From Sphingobacteriales bacterium (GTDB taxonomy: Bacteria > Bacteroidota > Bacteroidia > UKL13-3), in NCBI GenBank assembly GCA_021299635.1, contig JAJTFA010000001.1, positions 283,842-347,841 of the forward strand: a stretch of DNA of 64,000 nt, in the 5' to 3' direction. Positions 30,299 through 35,331 of this stretch are shown one piece after another (the stretch's first letter is position 1; each line of letters opens with the position of its first letter). The notes under the pieces were generated by a model. That model made no database searches and was not told the DNA's origin. It saw only the letters and a list, made by a program, of their open reading frames with translations. A program made the translations under genes and the position numbers.

Positions 30299-31687
30299 AT
30301 GAATTACGATGTAATAGTTATTGGCAGCGGCCCCGGAGGATATGTTGCCGCTATCAGAGCCAGTCAGTTAGGTTTAAAAACAGCCATTGTTGAGCGTGAA
30401 AGCCTGGGAGGTATTTGCCTCAATTGGGGTTGCATACCCACCAAAGCATTATTAAAATCTGCTCAGGTTTTTGAGTATGTAAAGCATGCTGCCGATTATG
30501 GCATTTCTATTAAAGATGCCTCGCATGATTTCGGTGCCGTTATTAAACGCAGCCGTGGTGTGGCAGATGGCATGAGCAAAGGCATTGCCTTTTTAATGAA
30601 GAAAAATAAAATCGATGTTATTATGGGCTCAGGCAAGGTAGCAGCCGCATCCAAAGTAGAAGTTACAGATGCTGCAGGTGCCAAAAAAACCTACGATGCC
30701 AAACATATTATTCTGGCAACAGGAGCCCGCAGCCGCGAGTTGCCAAATATTAAAATTGATGGTAAAAAAGTAATCGGCTATCGTGAGGCAATGACACTTC
30801 CAACTCAGCCAAAATCTATGATAGTAATGGGTAGCGGAGCCATTGGCTGTGAGTTTGCCTATTTCTACAATACCATGGGAACCAAAGTTACCATCGTGGA
30901 GTTTATGCCTAATATCTTGCCAATTGAAGATGAGGATGTATCCAAAGAAGTAGCTAAATCATTTAAAAAATCCGGTATCGAAATCATGACCGATGCTGCT
31001 GTTGAGTCGGTAGACACCAAAGGCAATACCTGCAAGGTTAAAGTTAAAACCAAAACCGGTATGGTAGATCTGGAGGCCGATGTGGTGCTATCTGCCGTAG
31101 GTGTGCAAACCAACCTTGAAAACCTGGGATTAGAAACCTTGGGTATTAAAACAGATAAAGGCAAAGTTGTGGTTGATGATTTTTATGCAACCAATATTAA
31201 AGGCATTTATGCCATTGGCGATATTGTAAAAGGCCCGGCCTTGGCGCACGTTGCCAGTGCCGAGGGTATTATTTGTGTAGAAAAAATTGCCGGACATCAC
31301 CCCGAGCCTTTAAACTATAACAATATTCCTGGCTGCACTTATTGCCTGCCGGAGGTAGCATCGGTTGGGTATACAGAGAAGGCTGCAAAAGAAGCAGGCT
31401 ATCAAATTAAAGTGGGTAAGTTTCCTTTTAGTGCCAGCGGAAAAGCCAGCGCAGCCGGAGCCAAAGAAGGTTTTGTAAAAGTAATTTTCGATGCCAAGTA
31501 TGGTGAGTTTTTGGGCGCACACATGGTAGGAGCCAACGTAACAGAAATGATAGCCGAAGTAGTTGCAGCACGCAAACTAGAAACCACCGGCATGGAAATC
31601 ATCAAAACCGTACATCCGCATCCAACCATGAGCGAGGCCGTAATGGAAGCCGCAGCCTTGGCCTATGGCGAGTGCATTCACTTATAA
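30299..31687 (+). CDS. lpd: Dihydrolipoyl dehydrogenase (E3)
   Basis: 462 aa; FAD GxGxxG (VIGSGPGGY), redox-active disulfide GGICLNWGCIPTK, NAD motif, C-terminal HPHPT. Confidence 0.93.
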   Translation: MNYDVIVIGSGPGGYVAAIRASQLGLKTAIVERESLGGICLNWGCIPTKALLKSAQVFEYVKHAADYGISIKDASHDFGAVIKRSRGVADGMSKGIAFLMKKNKIDVIMGSGKVAAASKVEVTDAAGAKKTYDAKHIILATGARSRELPNIKIDGKKVIGYREAMTLPTQPKSMIVMGSGAIGCEFAYFYNTMGTKVTIVEFMPNILPIEDEDVSKEVAKSFKKSGIEIMTDAAVESVDTKGNTCKVKVKTKTGMVDLEADVVLSAVGVQTNLENLGLETLGIKTDKGKVVVDDFYATNIKGIYAIGDIVKGPALAHVASAEGIICVEKIAGHHPEPLNYNNIPGCTYCLPEVASVGYTEKAAKEAGYQIKVGKFPFSASGKASAAGAKEGFVKVIFDAKYGEFLGAHMVGANVTEMIAEVVAARKLETTGMEIIKTVHPHPTMSEAVMEAAALAYGECIHL

Positions 31688-31712
31688 TCATTCACACACA
31701 CGATACAAACAA

Positions 31713-31741
31713 AAGGCCGCCTGTAAAAGGTGGCCTTTTTT
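31713..31741 (+). terminator. Rho-independent terminator of lpd
   Basis: aggccgcctgtaaaaggtggcct hairpin (8 bp stem incl. one G-U) followed by tttttt. Confidence 0.8.
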
Positions 31742-31745
31742 ATTG

Positions 31746-31880
31746 GGCGTTCCCCTGATGCTTGCGCCATCGCATGCGCCTGCGCAAGCAATATCAGGGT
31801 CGGGCTATGCGTTGCAAGTCCTCGTTCCCTCCGCTCACTGCGGGCTTTCCACTGCTATCCCTAACGCGATTTTTAATAGC
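31746..31880. other. GC-rich highly structured ~135 nt element of unknown function (candidate small RNA or REP-like element)
   Basis: Nested inverted repeats cctgatgcttgcgc / gcgcaagcaatatcagg, gcatgc core, ccgctcactgcgg hairpin; much more GC-rich than surrounding DNA; no credible ORF. Confidence 0.4.
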
Positions 31881-32014
31881 ATCATAATCGTTGAAACATA
31901 ACCTAATCATAATGAGTAATTATTCACTGCGCTTAAGGGCTTTCGTAAGGTGGGAAGTTAAATTAAACAGATGGCATTCCTCAACGGAATAATATGCTCC
32001 TTACAAAACAAAAG

Positions 32015-32045
32015 CGAGCTTTATTAAAACTCGCTTCATTTGTTT
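32015..32045 (-). terminator. Terminator-like hairpin downstream of degenerate tRNA-Asp fragment (paralog of 32365-32395)
   Basis: agcgagctttattaaaactcgctt hairpin flanked by A/T runs; similar sequence context to hairpin after intact tRNA-Asp. Confidence 0.55.
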
Positions 32046-32062
32046 AACCAATATTGGTTATT

Positions 32063-32104
32063 TAGCGGTGCGGACGCCCCGAGTACTCGGGGGAACCCGC
32101 GACC
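32063..32104 (-). pseudogene. Degenerate duplicate of tRNA-Asp 3' portion (variable loop to acceptor 3' strand) with 16 nt palindrome ccccgagtactcgggg inserted in T-loop
   Basis: agcggtgcggacg[ccccgagtactcgggg]gaacccgcgacc aligns with tRNA-Asp tggcggtgcggacgggactcgaacccgcgacc; also 50 bp of downstream flank is duplicated. Confidence 0.8.
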
Positions 32105-32105
32105 A

Positions 32106-32357
32106 CTAGATTAAGCCCGAAATCCTACGGTAAAATGACTTGTTCTTTTGAGCCTTTAGAAACTTTTCTCTCCGCAACGCATCTACTTGTGAATCGAAAG
32201 TTTCATGATAAACCAGGCGCCACGGTTTTTTGGCCTTTGTTGATTTGGTTAGACCGGTATTATGCTCCAGTAATCGCCTTTCTAAAGCAGTTGTGTAACC
32301 TATATAAAATGAATCGAAATTATCTGAATAAAGAAGATAAACGAAGTGCATATGCAT
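32106..32357 (-). CDS. Mini GIY-YIG nuclease-family protein (~84 aa; start at MHMHFVYLLYS; upstream part of ORF track entry is read-through into tRNA-Asp)
   Basis: GIY-YIG motif VYLLYSDNFDSFYIGYTTALERRLLEHN..; start codon directly abuts the U-tract of the tRNA-Asp terminator; stop abuts the pseudo-tRNA fragment. Confidence 0.8.
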   Translation of the reverse strand: MHMHFVYLLYSDNFDSFYIGYTTALERRLLEHNTGLTKSTKAKKPWRLVYHETFDSQVDALRREKFLKAQKNKSFYRRISGLI

Positions 32358-32364
32358 AAAAAAA

Positions 32365-32395
32365 GCGAGCTGTTTAAAAAGCTCACTTTCTGTAT
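32365..32395 (-). terminator. Intrinsic terminator immediately after tRNA-Asp
   Basis: minus-strand RNA agugagcu-uuuuaaac-agcucgcu 8 bp stem followed by UUUUUUU. Confidence 0.7.
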
Positions 32396-32405
32396 TTAAC
32401 CATTT

Positions 32406-32482
32406 TGGCGGTGCGGACGGGACTCGAACCCGCGACCCCATGCGTGACAGGCATGTATTCTAACCAGCTGAACTACCGCACC
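32406..32482 (-). tRNA. tRNA-Asp (anticodon GTC), CCA encoded
   Basis: Manual cloverleaf: acceptor ggtgcgg/ccgcacc, D-arm gttc..gaat, anticodon stem catgc/gcatg loop cuGUCac, T-arm gcggg uucgagu cccgu, discriminator G + CCA; 77 nt. Confidence 0.93.
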
Positions 32483-32501
32483 GTTCCTCTTAAAAGGGAT
32501 G

Positions 32502-32531
32502 CAAATATAGGATTTTCATGTATTTTGTCAA
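32502..32531 (-). promoter_or_regulatory. Bacteroidota sigma-A type promoter for tRNA-Asp (TTG-N19-TATATTTG)
   Basis: minus strand TTGacaaaatacatgaaaatccTATATTTG ending ~21 nt before tRNA 5' end. Confidence 0.55.
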
Positions 32532-32596
32532 CTCTTATTTAAAACTTTTTTATCTGCTTTTCTTCTTATTTTGCAGCCCGTTAGAAACCATTACCT

Positions 32597-33553
32597 ATGG
32601 CCAATTATTTCGATTTCGAAAAACCGATTCAAGAGCTTGAAGAGCAAATAGAAAAAACCAAGCAATTATCACAGAAAAACAAGCTTGACCTGAACGCTAC
32701 CATCAAAGATCTGGAAGCAAAAATGCTGGCTGAAAAAAAACGTATCTACAGTAGCCTTACTGGTTGGCAGCGTGTGCAGATTTCACGCCATCCGGAAAGG
32801 CCATATACACTTGATTACATTGAGCATTGCTTTGAGGACTTTATCGAACAACATGGCGACCGCAATGTAAAGGATGACAAGGCAATTGTTGGTGGTTTTG
32901 CTAAATTGGGCAACCAAACCGTAATGGTTATTGGTCATCAAAAAGGTCGCAATACCAAACAAAGACAGTTGCGCAACTTTGGTATGGCTAACCCTGAAGG
33001 ATATAGAAAGGCCTTGAGGTTAATGAAGCTTGCAGAGAAATTCAATAAGCCTATTATTACCCTTATCGATACACCCGGTGCTTCTCCGGGTTTGGAAGCA
33101 GAAGAACGCGGCCAGGGTGAAGCCATTGCTAAAAATCTGCTAGAGATGTCGGTATTAAAAGTTCCTGTAATCTGTATCGTAATTGGTGAAGGTGCTTCAG
33201 GAGGTGCTTTGGGGATTGGTGTGGGTGATAAAGTGCTGATGTTGGAGAATACGTGGTATTCGGTAATATCTCCTGAGTCCTGCTCATCGATACTTTGGCG
33301 CAGTTGGGAGCACAAGGAAAAAGCTGCAGAAGCACTCAAGTTAACCGCACCGGATATGCTCAAAAACGGATTAATTGATGGTGTAATACCTGAACCTTTG
33401 GGCGGTGCTCACAATGACACGAACGAGATGTATTCGCGCATAAAAGACGAGCTTACCAAGGTTTTGAACGATTTATCTAAACTGGATTCAGAAAAATTGA
33501 TAGAACAACGCATTGCCAAGTTTTCGGCAATGGGTGCATTTACAGAAACTTAA
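32597..33553 (+). CDS. accA: Acetyl-CoA carboxylase carboxyltransferase alpha subunit
   Basis: 318 aa; crotonase-fold CT-alpha motifs ([21 protein letters not shown]). Confidence 0.93.
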
Positions 33554-33557
33554 TAAA

Positions 33558-33578
33558 AAAAGCCCCTTCGGGGCTTTA
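33558..33578. terminator. Bidirectional hairpin terminator (accA on + ; GIY-YIG/pseudo-tRNA on -)
   Basis: aaaaaaagccccttcggggcttt: 6 bp GC stem, A-run one side T-run other. Confidence 0.75.
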
Positions 33579-33700
33579 GTGGAGGATAACGGAGTCGAAT
33601 CCCGAAACAGTGCCTTTTGAAAAGGCATACTGTTTCGAGGACCCTCGAAAAATTAAGAAATGCAAGCATTTCTATTTTTCGGGGCCGATGACCTCATGAA
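33576..33700 (-). pseudogene. Duplicate of tRNA-Ala 3' portion split by an 85 nt multi-hairpin insertion in the T-loop
   Basis: tttagtggaggataacggagtcgaa [tcccgaaacag...tttcgggg] ccgatgacctc matches intact tRNA-Ala tttagtggaggataacggagtcgaaccgatgacctc exactly outside the insertion. Confidence 0.85.
33600..33684. other. 85 nt structured insertion element: outer stem cccgaaa/tttcggg enclosing three hairpins
   Basis: hairpins aaacagtgcctttt/aaaaggcatactgttt, ttcgagg/ccctcgaa, agaaatgc/gcatttct; closes on itself; located exactly at T-loop position of the pseudo-tRNA. Confidence 0.6.
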
Positions 33701-33956
33701 ATTTAAATCCATTCTTAAGACAAAAATCATTTTGTCTGGCTCTTGATTTTAAGTTTTTGAGTTTACGCTCCATACTCAAAGCTTCAGTTCTGGATTGCAC
33801 TGCAAGAGAAGCAAATAAAACCCATGGCACCGCAGTTTTAGTTGATTGGTTTTTACCTGAATTGTGTTTTCTTATTCTTTCAGTTAAATCAGCTGTCTGG
33901 CCGATGTACCTTTTATCAGTAGAATGGGAATAGATTATGTAAACCCAGTATTTCAT
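33672..33956 (-). CDS. Mini GIY-YIG nuclease-family protein (94 aa), paralog of 32106-32357
   Basis: MKYWVYIIYSHSTDKRYIGQTADLTERIRKHN GIY-YIG motif; ~40% identical to the first copy; start codon 5 nt after tRNA-Ala terminator U-tract; last ~9 codons are encoded by the insertion end plus tRNA-derived ccgatgacctc. Confidence 0.8.
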   Translation of the reverse strand: MKYWVYIIYSHSTDKRYIGQTADLTERIRKHNSGKNQSTKTAVPWVLFASLAVQSRTEALSMERKLKNLKSRARQNDFCLKNGFKFHEVIGPEK

Positions 33957-33961
33957 TAATG

Positions 33962-33982
33962 AAAAAGGCCCAATGGGCCTTT
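33962..33982 (-). terminator. Intrinsic terminator immediately after tRNA-Ala
   Basis: aggcccaatgggcct 6 bp GC stem followed by uuuuu on minus-strand RNA. Confidence 0.75.
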
Positions 33983-33984
33983 AG

Positions 33985-34141
<157 letters not shown>

Positions 34142-34225
34142 AATTTTTTTTCTTCACTGATGACCTTCCCGATTTCATCGGGACGCTCTAGCCATCCCGA
34201 TTATGATCGGGAGAACTAATCCCCC
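34142..34225 (-). repeat. Pseudo-tRNA unit 2 (near-identical tandem copy of unit 1; D-loop hairpin tcccgatcataatcggga)
   Basis: ~95% identical to unit 1 over 83-84 bp, head-to-tail. Confidence 0.85.
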
Positions 34226-34237
34226 TTGGGGAGGCGG

Positions 34238-34267
34238 CAAATATATGAAGTAAGTTTTATTGTGCAA
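34238..34267 (-). promoter_or_regulatory. Bacteroidota sigma-A type promoter (TTG-N19-TATATTTG) upstream of pseudo-tRNA units and tRNA-Ala
   Basis: minus strand TTGcacaataaaacttacttcaTATATTTG ending 12 nt before pseudo-tRNA unit 2; same architecture as tRNA-Asp promoter. Confidence 0.5.
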
Positions 34268-34550
34268 ATTTAAACAGCACAATAATAAGCCCGTAAATAA
34301 GCGTAGATAGAATGATACCTCTGGCTATATAAAGCTTATCCTTGTTTAAAAACAGATAGAATAATCCCAGGTTTATTACTGCACATAAGCTCAACAAGGG
34401 TGATAATAGTTTTTTTGAAATGGCAAGGTCTAAAAATTCCATAAGCCCGCTGTGCCTGAATTCTGATAGGTAGAATCCAAGCGCACCCAGTAGTGGTCCG
34501 ATTAAACCTACAATAATTCCAATAGCTATATGATCTTTAATGTTGCGCAT
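34257..34550 (-). CDS. Small membrane protein (97 aa, 3 predicted TM), hypothetical
   Basis: hydrophobic segments; overlaps surE stop region; no known motif. Confidence 0.5.
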   Translation of the reverse strand: MRNIKDHIAIGIIVGLIGPLLGALGFYLSEFRHSGLMEFLDLAISKKLLSPLLSLCAVINLGLFYLFLNKDKLYIARGIILSTLIYGLIIVLFKFAQ

Positions 34551-35331
34551 GTGTTGCTATGTTTAAATTCCAGTTATTCAATTGCTGCATGGCATGATAG
34601 GCTGTTAGATCAAAATGCACCGGAACCACAGATGCAAAGCCATTTGCCAGTGCCCATTCATCGGTGTCTTCCCCTTTATCCATATTGATGAATTTGCCTG
34701 TTAGCCAGAAATACCTTCTTCCGTTTGGATCTTTTCTCTCATCAAATTCCTCTTGCCATTTAGCATTTGCCTGTCTGCAAATTTTAAGTCCGGCAAACGC
34801 TTCAGCGTTCACATTTGGAATATTTACATTGAGCAGTGTCCCCACCGGTAATCCGTTTTGAATAATATTTTTTGCAATGGTTTGTGCCACCGATACAGCT
34901 AATGAAAAATCGGCATCATATGCATAATTGCATAATGAAAATCCTACACTTGGTATGCCTTCTATCGCACCTTCCATAGCTGCACTCATGGTGCCTGAAT
35001 AAAGAACATTAATAGAAGAGTTGGAACCATGATTAATTCCAGAAACCAGTAGGTCCGGTTTGCGATGCAATACCTTATCTACAGCCAGCTTCACACAATC
35101 TGCCGGAGTGCCTGAGCATTGATAAGCAGTAAGCTCACCGTAAATATCTGTTTTTTCAAGTCTAAGTGGTTTGCTAATGGTAACTGCGTGACCCATGCCG
35201 CTTTGTGGGCTATCCGGAGCAACAATAATAATTTCTCCAAGCGGTTTCATGGCTGCTACCAAGGCACGTATACCAGGAGCAGTGATGCCATCATCATTTG
35301 ATATTAATATAAGTGGTTTATCTTGCTTCAT
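34537..35331 (-). CDS. surE: 5'/3'-nucleotidase SurE
   Basis: 264 aa; N-terminal LILISNDDGI metal-binding motif characteristic of SurE. Confidence 0.9.
   Translation of the reverse strand: MKQDKPLILISNDDGITAPGIRALVAAMKPLGEIIIVAPDSPQSGMGHAVTISKPLRLEKTDIYGELTAYQCSGTPADCVKLAVDKVLHRKPDLLVSGINHGSNSSINVLYSGTMSAAMEGAIEGIPSVGFSLCNYAYDADFSLAVSVAQTIAKNIIQNGLPVGTLLNVNIPNVNAEAFAGLKICRQANAKWQEEFDERKDPNGRRYFWLTGKFINMDKGEDTDEWALANGFASVVPVHFDLTAYHAMQQLNNWNLNIATHAQH

Follow-up and report, generated by a model that had tools for sequence, protein, structure and literature searches.

The 64,000-nucleotide (nt) window analyzed here, a stretch of contig JAJTFA010000001.1 from a Sphingobacteriales bacterium, contains only two tRNAs detectable with ARAGORN, a tRNA-Asp(GTC) at 32482-32406 (Rfam tRNA score of 67.6 bits) and a tRNA-Ala(GGC) at 34058-33984 (59.7 bits). 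Each is followed by a short open reading frame (ORF) that encodes a single-domain GIY-YIG nuclease. We refer to the tRNA-Asp and ORF A as module A and to the tRNA-Ala and ORF B as module B; accA is located between the two modules, and all features described for them are on the minus strand. Each ORF is flanked by a direct repeat that comprises the 3' part of the tRNA, a spacer, and a terminator. The upstream copy of the repeat completes the functional tRNA. The downstream copy is a pseudo-tRNA fragment, in which the T loop has been swapped for hairpin DNA, followed by the native terminator. The features of the two modules, with the basis of each assignment in brackets, are as follows.

32502-32531, minus strand: promoter of the tRNA-Asp unit, TTGACA ... 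TATATTTG (sigma-70 scan, 11/12; TAnnTTTG at 32509).
32406-32482, minus strand: tRNA-Asp (GTC), with CCA encoded (ARAGORN; Rfam).
32358-32405, minus strand: spacer, terminator-like hairpin (32364-32387), and a tract of seven T, T7 (32358-32364), forming the upstream repeat copy (sequence; fold).
32106-32357, minus strand: ORF A, single-domain GIY-YIG nuclease of 83 amino acids (aa) from the first ATG or 81 aa from the ATG at 32351 (PF01541).
32065-32104, minus strand: pseudo-tRNA-Asp 3' fragment, composed of GGTCGCGGGTTC, the palindrome CCCCGAGTACTCGGGG (32077-32092), and CGTCCGCACCGC (repeat and fold).
32004-32064, minus strand: downstream spacer copy with the palindrome AACCAATATTGGTT (32046-32059) and the native terminator (32011-32037) (terminator scan).
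34233-34275, minus strand: promoter region of the tRNA-Ala unit, with TAAATTTG at 34272 and TATATTTG at 34245 (consensus scans).
34059-34225, minus strand: two tandem pseudo-tRNA-Ala 5' units, with cores at 34159-34225 and 34075-34141 (repeat family D1).
33984-34058, minus strand: tRNA-Ala (GGC), identical in sequence to the copies in the related loci L011 and L180 (ARAGORN; Rfam).
33957-33983, minus strand: hairpin AAAGGCCC-ATT-GGGCCTTT, TT, and CATTA, the upstream copy of the tRNA-Ala terminator (fold; repeat family D3).
33672-33956, minus strand: ORF B, single-domain GIY-YIG nuclease of 94 aa (PF01541).
33574-33695, minus strand: pseudo-tRNA-Ala 3' part, composed of GAGGTCATCGG (33685-33695), an 85-nt insert with two hairpins (33600-33684), and TTCGACTCCGTTATCCTCCACTAAAG (33574-33599).
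33549-33577, minus strand: native tRNA-Ala terminator, convergent with the end of accA (terminator scan; same position in L011).

In module A, an 18-nt spacer separates the tRNA-Asp from the hairpin AGTGAGCT/AGCTCGCT (32387-32364), which is followed by T7 and by ATGCATATGCAC from position 32357. In module B, the tRNA-Ala is followed by its hairpin (33982-33964), TT, CATTA, and an ATG at 33956. An earlier, sequence-only reading of this DNA had placed the ATG of ORF A on the nucleotide after the seven-U tract of the tRNA-Asp terminator and that of ORF B 5 nt past the U tract of the tRNA-Ala terminator, and both placements are accurate to the base. Both pre-ORF hairpins have the attributes of intrinsic terminators, with a G+C-containing stem-loop and a U run after the stem. 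The stem in module A is 7-8 bp long with one G-U pair and an 8-nt loop, and that in module B is 8 bp long with a 3-nt loop; the fold energies are -16.2 kcal/mol (including the A/U extension) and -12.2 kcal/mol, respectively (z about -2.6). The U run in module B comprises only five T, three of which pair with A's of the stem, and is weaker than the T7 of module A. A simple terminator scan listed the downstream copies (32037-32011 and 33577-33559) but not the pre-ORF hairpins of either module. A second in-frame ATG of ORF A at 32351 yields MHFVY, the most frequent N-terminus among relatives, and the sole ATG in the ortholog from L177 (81% identical) is the one adjoining T7. The frame of ORF A is also open upstream, through the terminator and into the tRNA, yielding a mechanical 111-aa ORF (32106-32441) with its ATG inside the tRNA. 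Starts of this type are used by some public gene calls (L006) and are an artefact of the absent in-frame stop.

The abutment of terminator and start codon recurs in seven further Bacteroidota loci with related ORFs. The distance from the T run to the ATG is 0 nt in L177, 3 nt in L035 (Pedobacter sp. BS3, NZ_VTRT01000002.1), 4 nt in L091, 5 nt in L180/L181, 10 nt in L171, and 10 and 11 nt in L178/L179; the layouts of L091 (tRNA-Asp) and L035 (tRNA-Leu) resemble that of the window. Judged from these sequences, the abutment is more than chance and is a regular outcome of the cassette geometry. The ORF begins at the end of the duplicated segment of tRNA 3' part, spacer, and terminator, and therefore the ATG abuts the U tract.

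The repeat structure of the window comprises families D3 in module B and D6, D7, D12, and D16 in module A. The module A repeat, which extends from GGTCGCGGGTTC through CGTCCGCACCGC to the spacer, hairpin, and T run, is at 32437-32358 and again at 32104-32004, with the downstream copy starting directly past the stop codon of ORF A. In this copy, the perfect palindrome CCCCGAGTACTCGGGG stands in place of the six T-loop bases GAGTCC, and the 12-mers on both sides of the palindrome are identical to those of the real tRNA-Asp. The resulting fragment folds into a single long hairpin (-28.4 kcal/mol, z -4.4). It is identical in L171, L177, L178, and L179, and a diverged version is present in L011 and L091. 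The upstream trailer is 76-81% identical to the downstream copy at 32004-32050 (families D6/D7), and the downstream spacer-terminator (-21.5 kcal/mol, z -5.2) is nearly identical to both L177 copies.

A 43-nt stretch of module B that spans the tRNA 3' end and the terminator has a second copy at 33557-33599, with 88% identity and a compensated stem change (family D3), and the pseudo-tRNA-Ala 3' part includes 26 nt identical to 33979-34004. The T loop of this displaced 3' end carries the 85-nt insert, whose two long hairpins have a fold energy of -43.6 kcal/mol (z -5.6). A homologous insert is present in L180 (1682-1764) and L181 (378-460), with covarying inner stems, next to a protein that is 65% identical to that of ORF B. 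ORF B takes its final codons from the pseudo-tRNA piece GAGGTCATCGG and from the first bases of the hairpin insert (GPEK), and the C-terminus EVIGPEK is kept in this relative (P0067). On the other side of the module, between the promoter and the tRNA-Ala, the two tandem 5' units (96% identical, period 84, -30.4 kcal/mol) copy positions 1 to about 51 of the tRNA-Ala, or its 5' two-thirds, and are both truncated after AGGTCATC. Each unit has an 18-nt TCCCGAT..ATCGGGA hairpin where the D-loop bases AGC would be and another hairpin, of 17 nt, in place of the 17-nt anticodon arm. The tandem units are absent from L011 and L180 and may be remnants of cassettes in which the ORF was upstream of the tRNA and has since been lost.

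Hairpins of the form CCCGA..TCGGG occur five times in the 64-kb window, compared to 0.11 expected, and all five are within pseudo-tRNA pieces. Two other origins for the palindromes were considered and ruled out. A REP-like, genome-wide repeat is inconsistent with the restriction of the hairpin to pseudo-tRNA pieces and with its absence from 576 kb of related genomes. An origin from the local tRNA sequence, through template switching or hairpin-end repair, is inconsistent with palindrome arms that are not derived from the flanking tRNA and with the presence of the TCCCGAGTACTCGGGA type in an Asp T loop, an Asp D arm, and a Val D arm.

To place the modules in a comparative framework, we scanned for AccA and obtained 80 related genomes. 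The nearest AccA relative (92% identical) was from L011, a Lake Mendota metagenome-assembled genome of a sister species, in which the locus comprises a promoter, a single tRNA-Ala identical to that of the window with the counterpart promoter box directly 5' of it, and a terminator adjoining accA. Neither ORF B nor any pseudo-copy is present. Module A is present in L011 and colinear with that of the window; the tRNA-Asp promoter is 100% conserved, whereas the protein is only 60% identical. The more distant relatives L012-L017 have a tRNA-Asp upstream of accA and no GIY-YIG gene. Presence/absence polymorphism at a conserved target was therefore identified for both modules, with L011 lacking module B and L012-L017 lacking module A. 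Orthologs of ORF A at the accA-tRNA-Asp locus were identified through the protein index in two further species, L171 (70% identical) and L177 (81%), and a fourth relative, L178/L179, has the same layout; module A is syntenic in at least five species. The sole relative of ORF B, P0067, is encoded in L180/L181, where the order is tRNA-Ala, terminator, 5 nt, ORF, pseudo-3' end with two-hairpin insert, terminator, and a second ORF with a GTG start.

The repeat copies in these genomes record exchange. In L171 and in L177, the pre-ORF and post-fragment spacer-terminators are 100% identical within the genome and are unrelated between the two genomes, and the GGTCGCGGGTTC-CCCCGAGTACTCGGGG-CGTCCGCACCGC fragment is constant across these genomes while spacers and terminators vary. 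Both repeat copies of L177 end with TTTTTTTATGCA, such that the repeat closes with the start codon, and the second repeat of L178/L179 continues into about 50 nt of a second ORF copy. The upstream trailer of module A in the window, ATGCATATGCA included, matches the native downstream copy of L011 with 81% identity. The two module B repeat copies are identical through CATTA in L001/L007, which are strains of the species represented by the window, and are different in the window and L006-L010. Collectively, these sequence comparisons indicate that the repeats exchange sequence within and between lineages through recombination. A selectively weakened upstream terminator that would favor read-through was also considered and dropped, given the identical copies in L001/L007 and L171/L177.

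Strain differences within the species have a distribution of their own. They cluster in the downstream pseudo-tRNA, spacer, and terminator copies, and the ORFs and upstream copies are identical; in module A (32020-32073, compared to L008) all six differences are downstream, as are nearly all of those in module B (33547-33573, compared to L001/L007). In L091, CCCCGAG..CTCGGGG is present in the pseudo-tRNA T loop and in both terminator stems (68-93, 362-377, 390-419), as if copied in.

The proteins encoded by ORFs A and B score 57.1 and 55.7 bits against PF01541 (cut-off 22.6), are 38% identical to each other, and have no further copy in the window. Residues Y5, Y16, G18, R26, H30, N31, and E62 are invariant in 23 relatives. 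Ratios of nonsynonymous to synonymous substitution rates (dN/dS) of 0.14 (A compared to L177) and 0.21 (B compared to L180) show purifying selection on both proteins and, together with the invariant catalytic residues, mark them as functional. The best matches among solved structures were the UPF0213 proteins BH0048 (PDB 1ZG2) and EF2693 (PDB 1YWL), with profile E values of 1e-16 and 3e-14; SLX1 matched with a profile E value of 1.5e-7, and protein A by itself gave 4e-8. Against NCBIfam, only a sub-threshold match to TIGR01453, which describes group I intron endonucleases, was recovered (19-21 bits, cut-off 56). Homing endonucleases combine the nuclease with a C-terminal DNA-binding region, for a total of roughly 200-270 aa, and the 81-94 aa proteins of the window consist of one domain. 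The identification of these genes as homing endonucleases in the sequence-only reading is thus not borne out, and by sequence A and B are not enzymes of the I-TevI/Seg type.

The family to which these proteins belong is large, with 7,349 representatives at 50% identity (phmmer, E up to 1e-3). Many of the representatives have called N-terminal extensions of 20-50 aa, which may be an artefact similar to that at ORF A. Two called proteins, P0068 (214 aa) and P0071 (205 aa), each contain two GIY-YIG stretches and are probably tandem cassettes called as one gene.

Linkage to tRNAs extends beyond the Bacteroidota. We examined the loci of 80 metagenomic relatives (40-58% identical, G+C of 0.34-0.65) and found that 64 of the 67 tRNAs in these loci are on the same strand as the ORF. 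A same-strand tRNA is within 300 nt in 39 of 46 loci from the hairpin-carrying clades, compared to a background of 0.036 tRNA per kb, and the tRNA is within 60 nt upstream in 14 loci and within 60 nt downstream in 19. The neighboring tRNAs represent at least thirteen isoacceptor types. Partial copies of the tRNA concerned are present in 32 of the 34 loci with a same-strand tRNA within 60 nt of the ORF, and in 26 a GC-rich hairpin abuts the copy, where it stands for, or is inserted into, the anticodon arm, D arm, or T loop.

Three types of perfect hairpin are enriched near the 80 related ORFs. The first, NNCGCC-N3-GGCGNN (mostly TCCGCCNNNGGCGGA), was identified 58 times in the 76 kb within 400 nt of an ORF, 13 times in 178 kb farther away, and 20 times in 576 kb of background. 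The CCCGAG(N0-3)CTCGGG type was identified nine times within 400 nt of ORFs, twice farther away, and not in the background, and the corresponding counts for the CCTGCC..GGCAGG type were 14, 4, and 1. Hairpin type tracks protein clade. Protein A belongs to a Bacteroidota-like clade in which the CCCGAG type is found; the other two types are those of a second clade, and a third clade, with long C-termini, has none of the three and is mostly without tRNA. In L103, L117, and L123, which belong to a high-G+C clade without tRNAs or the three hairpin types, the motif CGCGTAAAAGGCTTCGCCTCACGCG / CACGTAAAAGCTTCGCTCACGTG recurs 150 nt upstream and may be the cognate repeat of this clade. The hairpins flanking the ORF in L168 (82-96 and 507-521), L111 (1994-2008 and 2325-2339), and L154 are reverse complements of each other (GCA/TGC and TTT/AAA loops), and therefore one short palindrome can be found in both orientations.

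Several loci of the family have further peculiarities. In L094 (1731-1994), L159, L110, L111, L100, and L168, the ORF extends into a tRNA or pseudo-tRNA and takes the D-loop TAG as its stop codon, yielding C-termini such as ...SSVG, ...NSVG, and ...SSAG and a gene-tRNA overlap of about 20 nt. In L096 (2246-3067) and L098 (1040-1861), a family member is located between tRNA-Ile(GAT) and tRNA-Ala(TGC), with a 54-nt copy of the tRNA-Ile 5' end upstream; this pair of tRNAs is typically found in the 16S-23S spacer of the rRNA operon. Among 2.9 million viral contigs, only two family matches were identified, with no tRNA beside either, and a phage as origin or vector was rejected on this basis.

With regard to expression, exact matches to the Bacteroidetes -7 box TAnnTTTG were found only at 32509, 5' of the tRNA-Asp and with TTGACA upstream, and at 34272 and 34245, 5' of the array of pseudo-tRNAs and tRNA-Ala. 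Between the tRNA start and the ORF start, neither module has a TAnnTTTG box with up to 1 mismatch or, in a sigma-70 scan, a promoter-like pair. The absence of a consensus promoter, together with gaps of 0-5 nt between terminator and ORF, supports dependence on the tRNA promoter, and such dependence is a reasonable interpretation of the sequence. The earlier argument that there is no space for an independent promoter therefore stands. It is highly improbable, in our estimation, that the ORFs are instead driven by a non-consensus promoter of their own, one that overlaps with the 3' end of the tRNA or with the hairpin; consensus searches do not cover alternative sigma factors, which leaves room for one, but the spacers are wholly different between orthologous loci, and this argues against a conserved promoter in addition to the negative scans.

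The closest counterpart to these proteins and their hairpins is the recently described Ssn family of 94-aa single-domain GIY-YIG proteins with residues Y6, Y17, and E64 (Chenal et al., Nat Commun 2025, PMC11893778). An Ssn nuclease binds its hairpin repeat solely as single-stranded DNA (ssDNA) and cuts a few nt upstream, and ssn genes are usually flanked by cognate NTS/SRM hairpins, an arrangement given as 'NTS-ssnA-NTS ... identical to mobile genetic elements' and likened to an insertion sequence, in which hairpin and protein co-vary (PMC11893778). Neisseria SsnA modulates transformation, and its authors propose domestication; it does not bind RNA, and the role of the family outside Neisseria 'remains to be elucidated' (PMC11893778). 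The word tRNA does not appear in the main text of that paper (PMC11893778). The proteins of the window resemble Ssn in size (81 and 94 aa), in the positions of catalytic residues (Y5, Y16, and E62 in A), in the covariation of protein and hairpin, and in flanking inverted repeats of 20-50 nt that form hairpins. In module A, the palindrome is within a 46-nt hairpin that follows the stop codon, and in module B hairpins are present on both sides, at 34084-34211 upstream of the tRNA-Ala and ORF and at 33600-33684 downstream. Unlike Ssn as published, the hairpins here are found in place of, or within, the arms of partial tRNA copies, and the gene is part of a tRNA transcription unit.

We consider it somewhat more probable than the opposite (approximately 0.55) that modules A and B are insertions of small cassettes, each comprising a nuclease gene and a palindrome-bearing piece derived from a tRNA, in the 3' parts of the tRNA-Asp and tRNA-Ala genes, with integration, expression, and Ssn-like activity as follows. 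Integration would take place by recombination inside the tRNA 3' segment, as a single crossover or as break-induced copying from a cassette-bearing template, and would regenerate the tRNA and duplicate its trailer. The observed order of tRNA, trailer, ORF, pseudo-3' end with palindrome, and trailer is exactly what would result if a cassette copy and an intact tRNA gene were joined by one crossover on the 3' side of the palindrome. Transcription of the ORF would then start solely at the tRNA promoter, depend on polymerases running past the terminator copy, and end at the second terminator, behind the stable pseudo-tRNA hairpin. By analogy with Ssn, the nuclease may recognize its own hairpin as ssDNA, which would be abundant in heavily transcribed tRNA genes, and its activity may promote the recombination that spreads or maintains the cassette in tRNA loci.

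A number of points weigh against this interpretation. The filled allele retains all of the sequence of the empty allele, including the intact tRNA, the spacer-terminator, and the junction of terminator and flank. Classical homing with an immune donor therefore does not fit, and we rejected this mechanism because the target is neither destroyed nor altered by the insertion. The integration mechanism given above is conjecture, and the model accounts neither for the substitution of a hairpin for one arm in the displaced tRNA copy nor for the escape of the carrier's intact tRNA from cleavage. The published Ssn SRM consensus, HGTCWYN(0-2)YYVSBRHN(0-5)WNVSBRGN(0-2)RNCYNB, has no match in the window, the 80 related loci, or the 576 kb of background. 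Vertical inheritance of module A at a single locus across at least five species would suit a domesticated gene as well. Read-through, the ends of the transcripts, and translation are predictions from sequence, and promoters were sought by consensus only. The terminator is also not a constant feature. In the L011 ortholog of module A, a stable hairpin (-15.4 kcal/mol) is followed by CGCATTT-ATG without a U tract. Outside of the Bacteroidota, 13 of the 15 upstream tRNAs among the metagenomic relatives (the 14 loci given above and one locus outside the hairpin-carrying clades) are 1-25 nt from the ORF, too close for a terminator to fit in between. The loci L094, L159, and L093, whose proteins are closely related to protein A, are ordered as consensus promoter, hairpin-bearing 5' piece of a pseudo-tRNA, ORF, and real tRNA, with no terminator; the ORF enters the tRNA and ends at the D-loop TAG, such that synthesis of the tRNA requires transcription of the ORF. 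Since many relatives have no terminator before the ORF, read-through is not the general mode of the family. Co-transcription with a tRNA appears from these layouts to be the family rule, with the intervening terminator a feature of the Bacteroidota layout, where the duplicated segment includes the tRNA trailer, and read-through a local by-product.

These observations bear directly on the proposal, made in the sequence-only reading, that minimal expression from a strong housekeeping promoter is a strategy of selfish homing-endonuclease genes. According to this explanation, the pre-ORF terminator is an attenuator maintained by selection, which keeps expression minimal through rare read-through from a strong tRNA promoter. 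A hairpin and T run 0-5 nt before the ATG in both modules, an ATG 0-11 nt past the T run in the seven further Bacteroidota loci, and the compensated stem change between the module B copies, which implies that the hairpin is maintained, would all be expected of an attenuator, and mobE and other free-standing endonuclease genes of phages are known to rely on upstream transcription and hairpin controls. However, the terminator copy comes free with the duplication and is identical to the native one in L171, L177, and L007, with no special tuning visible. The missing U tract in L011, the 1-25 nt spacers, the ORF located between promoter and tRNA in L094, L159, and L093, and proteins without the DNA-binding domain of homing endonucleases likewise argue against it. 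Minimal expression as a device is consequently not sustained as a general explanation, because the abutment follows from the repeat structure and the terminator is not conserved, and we regard a selected attenuator as unlikely. A domesticated host gene is a somewhat doubtful explanation. Here, an Ssn-like single-strand nuclease would control recombination or incoming ssDNA, tRNA loci would serve as a safe, transcribed harbor, and the pseudo-tRNAs would be inert scars. Purifying selection on both proteins (dN/dS of 0.14 and 0.21), the synteny of module A next to accA in the window, L011, L171, and L177, the near-absence from viral contigs (2 in 2.9 million), and the precedent of Neisseria SsnA are consistent with domestication. 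It is harder to reconcile with presence/absence that varies between close species, the occupation of both tRNAs of the window by proteins just 38% identical, tandem and truncated units, an upstream trailer swapped between lineages, and hairpins that are non-random and inside pseudo-tRNAs. The earlier description of the modules as parasitic cassettes thus holds in part: the empty sites in L011 and L012-L017 support inserted cassettes, while the synteny in at least five species and the dN/dS of 0.14 leave 'parasitic' unsettled.

The hairpins and pseudo-tRNAs might alternatively act at the level of RNA, as processing or stability signals that release the ORF mRNA from the tRNA precursor, in which case the 'terminator' would be mainly a processing structure. 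The very stable structures right past the stop codons (-28.4 and -43.6 kcal/mol, z -4.4 and -5.6) and the covarying inner stems of the window and L180 are suggestive in this regard, as is a full-length pseudo-tRNA in L111 that scores 37.8 bits as a tRNA despite a swapped anticodon arm. Yet most pseudo-copies are without one acceptor strand and therefore cannot form a cloverleaf, and where the ORF ends at a D-loop TAG, as in several loci, RNase P cleavage would remove the stop codon. Covariation is equally expected of DNA hairpins, and SsnA does not bind RNA. We consider an RNA-level role improbable, and continue to favor cassette insertion into the tRNA 3' segment.

Other known systems share individual properties with these cassettes. 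In integrase-type tRNA islands and prophages, a direct repeat of the tRNA 3' part also flanks the insert and an intact tRNA is regenerated upstream. Unlike these islands, the inserts here are 0.35-0.6 kb, the repeat spans the spacer and terminator, and the displaced copy has an inserted palindrome; no integrase gene is present between the repeats, where the sole ORF is the 81-94 aa nuclease. Selfish elements of another kind, class C group II introns, integrate immediately behind intrinsic terminators, where they cause little harm and are transcribed only by read-through. They are alike in this post-terminator position and differ in machinery (a ribozyme and reverse transcriptase) and in the lack of tRNA duplication. 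REP/RAYT systems (REPINs), an analogy drawn for Ssn (PMC11893778), likewise pair a nuclease gene with flanking cognate short palindromes whose type tracks clade. RAYTs, however, are HUH/Y1 enzymes and REPs are dispersed among intergenic regions, whereas the CCCGA..TCGGG hairpins of the window are only inside pseudo-tRNA pieces.

Among GIY-YIG proteins, phage T4 SegB is a free-standing homing endonuclease encoded in a tRNA gene cluster; it promotes inheritance of the tRNA region, and segmental amplification of loci is described in a 2026 paper (PMC2330249; PMC13096335). A GIY-YIG gene among tRNA genes and the tandem units in the loci studied here make this a looser parallel. SegB has several domains, including a DNA-binding part, and cleaves a specific double-stranded DNA site in a phage genome, and to our knowledge pseudo-tRNAs with hairpin-swapped arms have not been described for it. 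Prokaryotic orthologs of Slx1 have been discussed, together with a fusion that hints at RNA metabolism (Dunin-Horkawicz et al., 2006; PMC1564403). SLX1 itself, unlike A and B, has an additional zinc-finger domain and a partner, SLX4. The UPF0213 structures that match best are without an assigned function, and we know of no tRNA linkage for UPF0213 proteins. A full-text search of the literature, with incomplete coverage, returned nothing on a link between tRNA genes or pseudo-tRNAs and small GIY-YIG genes of bacteria. By sequence, Ssn-like cassettes embedded in tRNA loci with hairpin-swapped pseudo-tRNAs appear to be an undescribed variant of a recently described kind of element.

Elsewhere in the neighborhood, Rfam searches (E up to 1 across 31000-35000; E up to 0.05 in 12 related loci) returned only tRNAs and a sub-threshold Flavo-1 match. 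In the window, this match is at 31794-31872 on the minus strand (31.4 bits, compared to a gathering score of 42), between module A and the lpdA terminator, and is followed by a GC-rich inverted repeat at 31745-31800. A Flavo-1-like region is also present in L177 (1986-2064) and in the colinear stretch of L011, and is thus conserved across species.

The wider pattern, in which Ssn-like cassettes occupy tRNA loci alongside hairpin-swapped pseudo-tRNAs, is of more interest than the read-through arrangement itself. We tentatively raise the possibility that Ssn-like GIY-YIG nucleases and their cognate hairpins constitute a class of integrase-free mobile elements that colonizes tRNA genes in many phyla. 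Such elements would use tRNA-derived homology arms, regenerate a working tRNA, leave displaced copies in which an arm (D, anticodon, or T) is swapped for the recognition hairpin of the nuclease, and depend on the tRNA promoter for expression. The abutment of ATG and terminator would then be a readable footprint of the arrival of a cassette. With a copy of the tRNA trailer on either side of the ORF, direct tests can be made of the geometry of insertion, of whether expression depends on the tRNA promoter, and of the empty site. If the link to tRNAs holds, it would explain many of the 'tRNA fragments', odd tRNA-like calls, and spuriously extended gene calls in annotation, and would offer natural pairs of enzyme and hairpin for ssDNA tools. 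It would also provide a concrete hypothesis for the function of Ssn-like ssDNA nucleases and, if the integrase-free class of elements is real, a biological context for the Ssn family outside Neisseria and a new mode of tRNA targeting.

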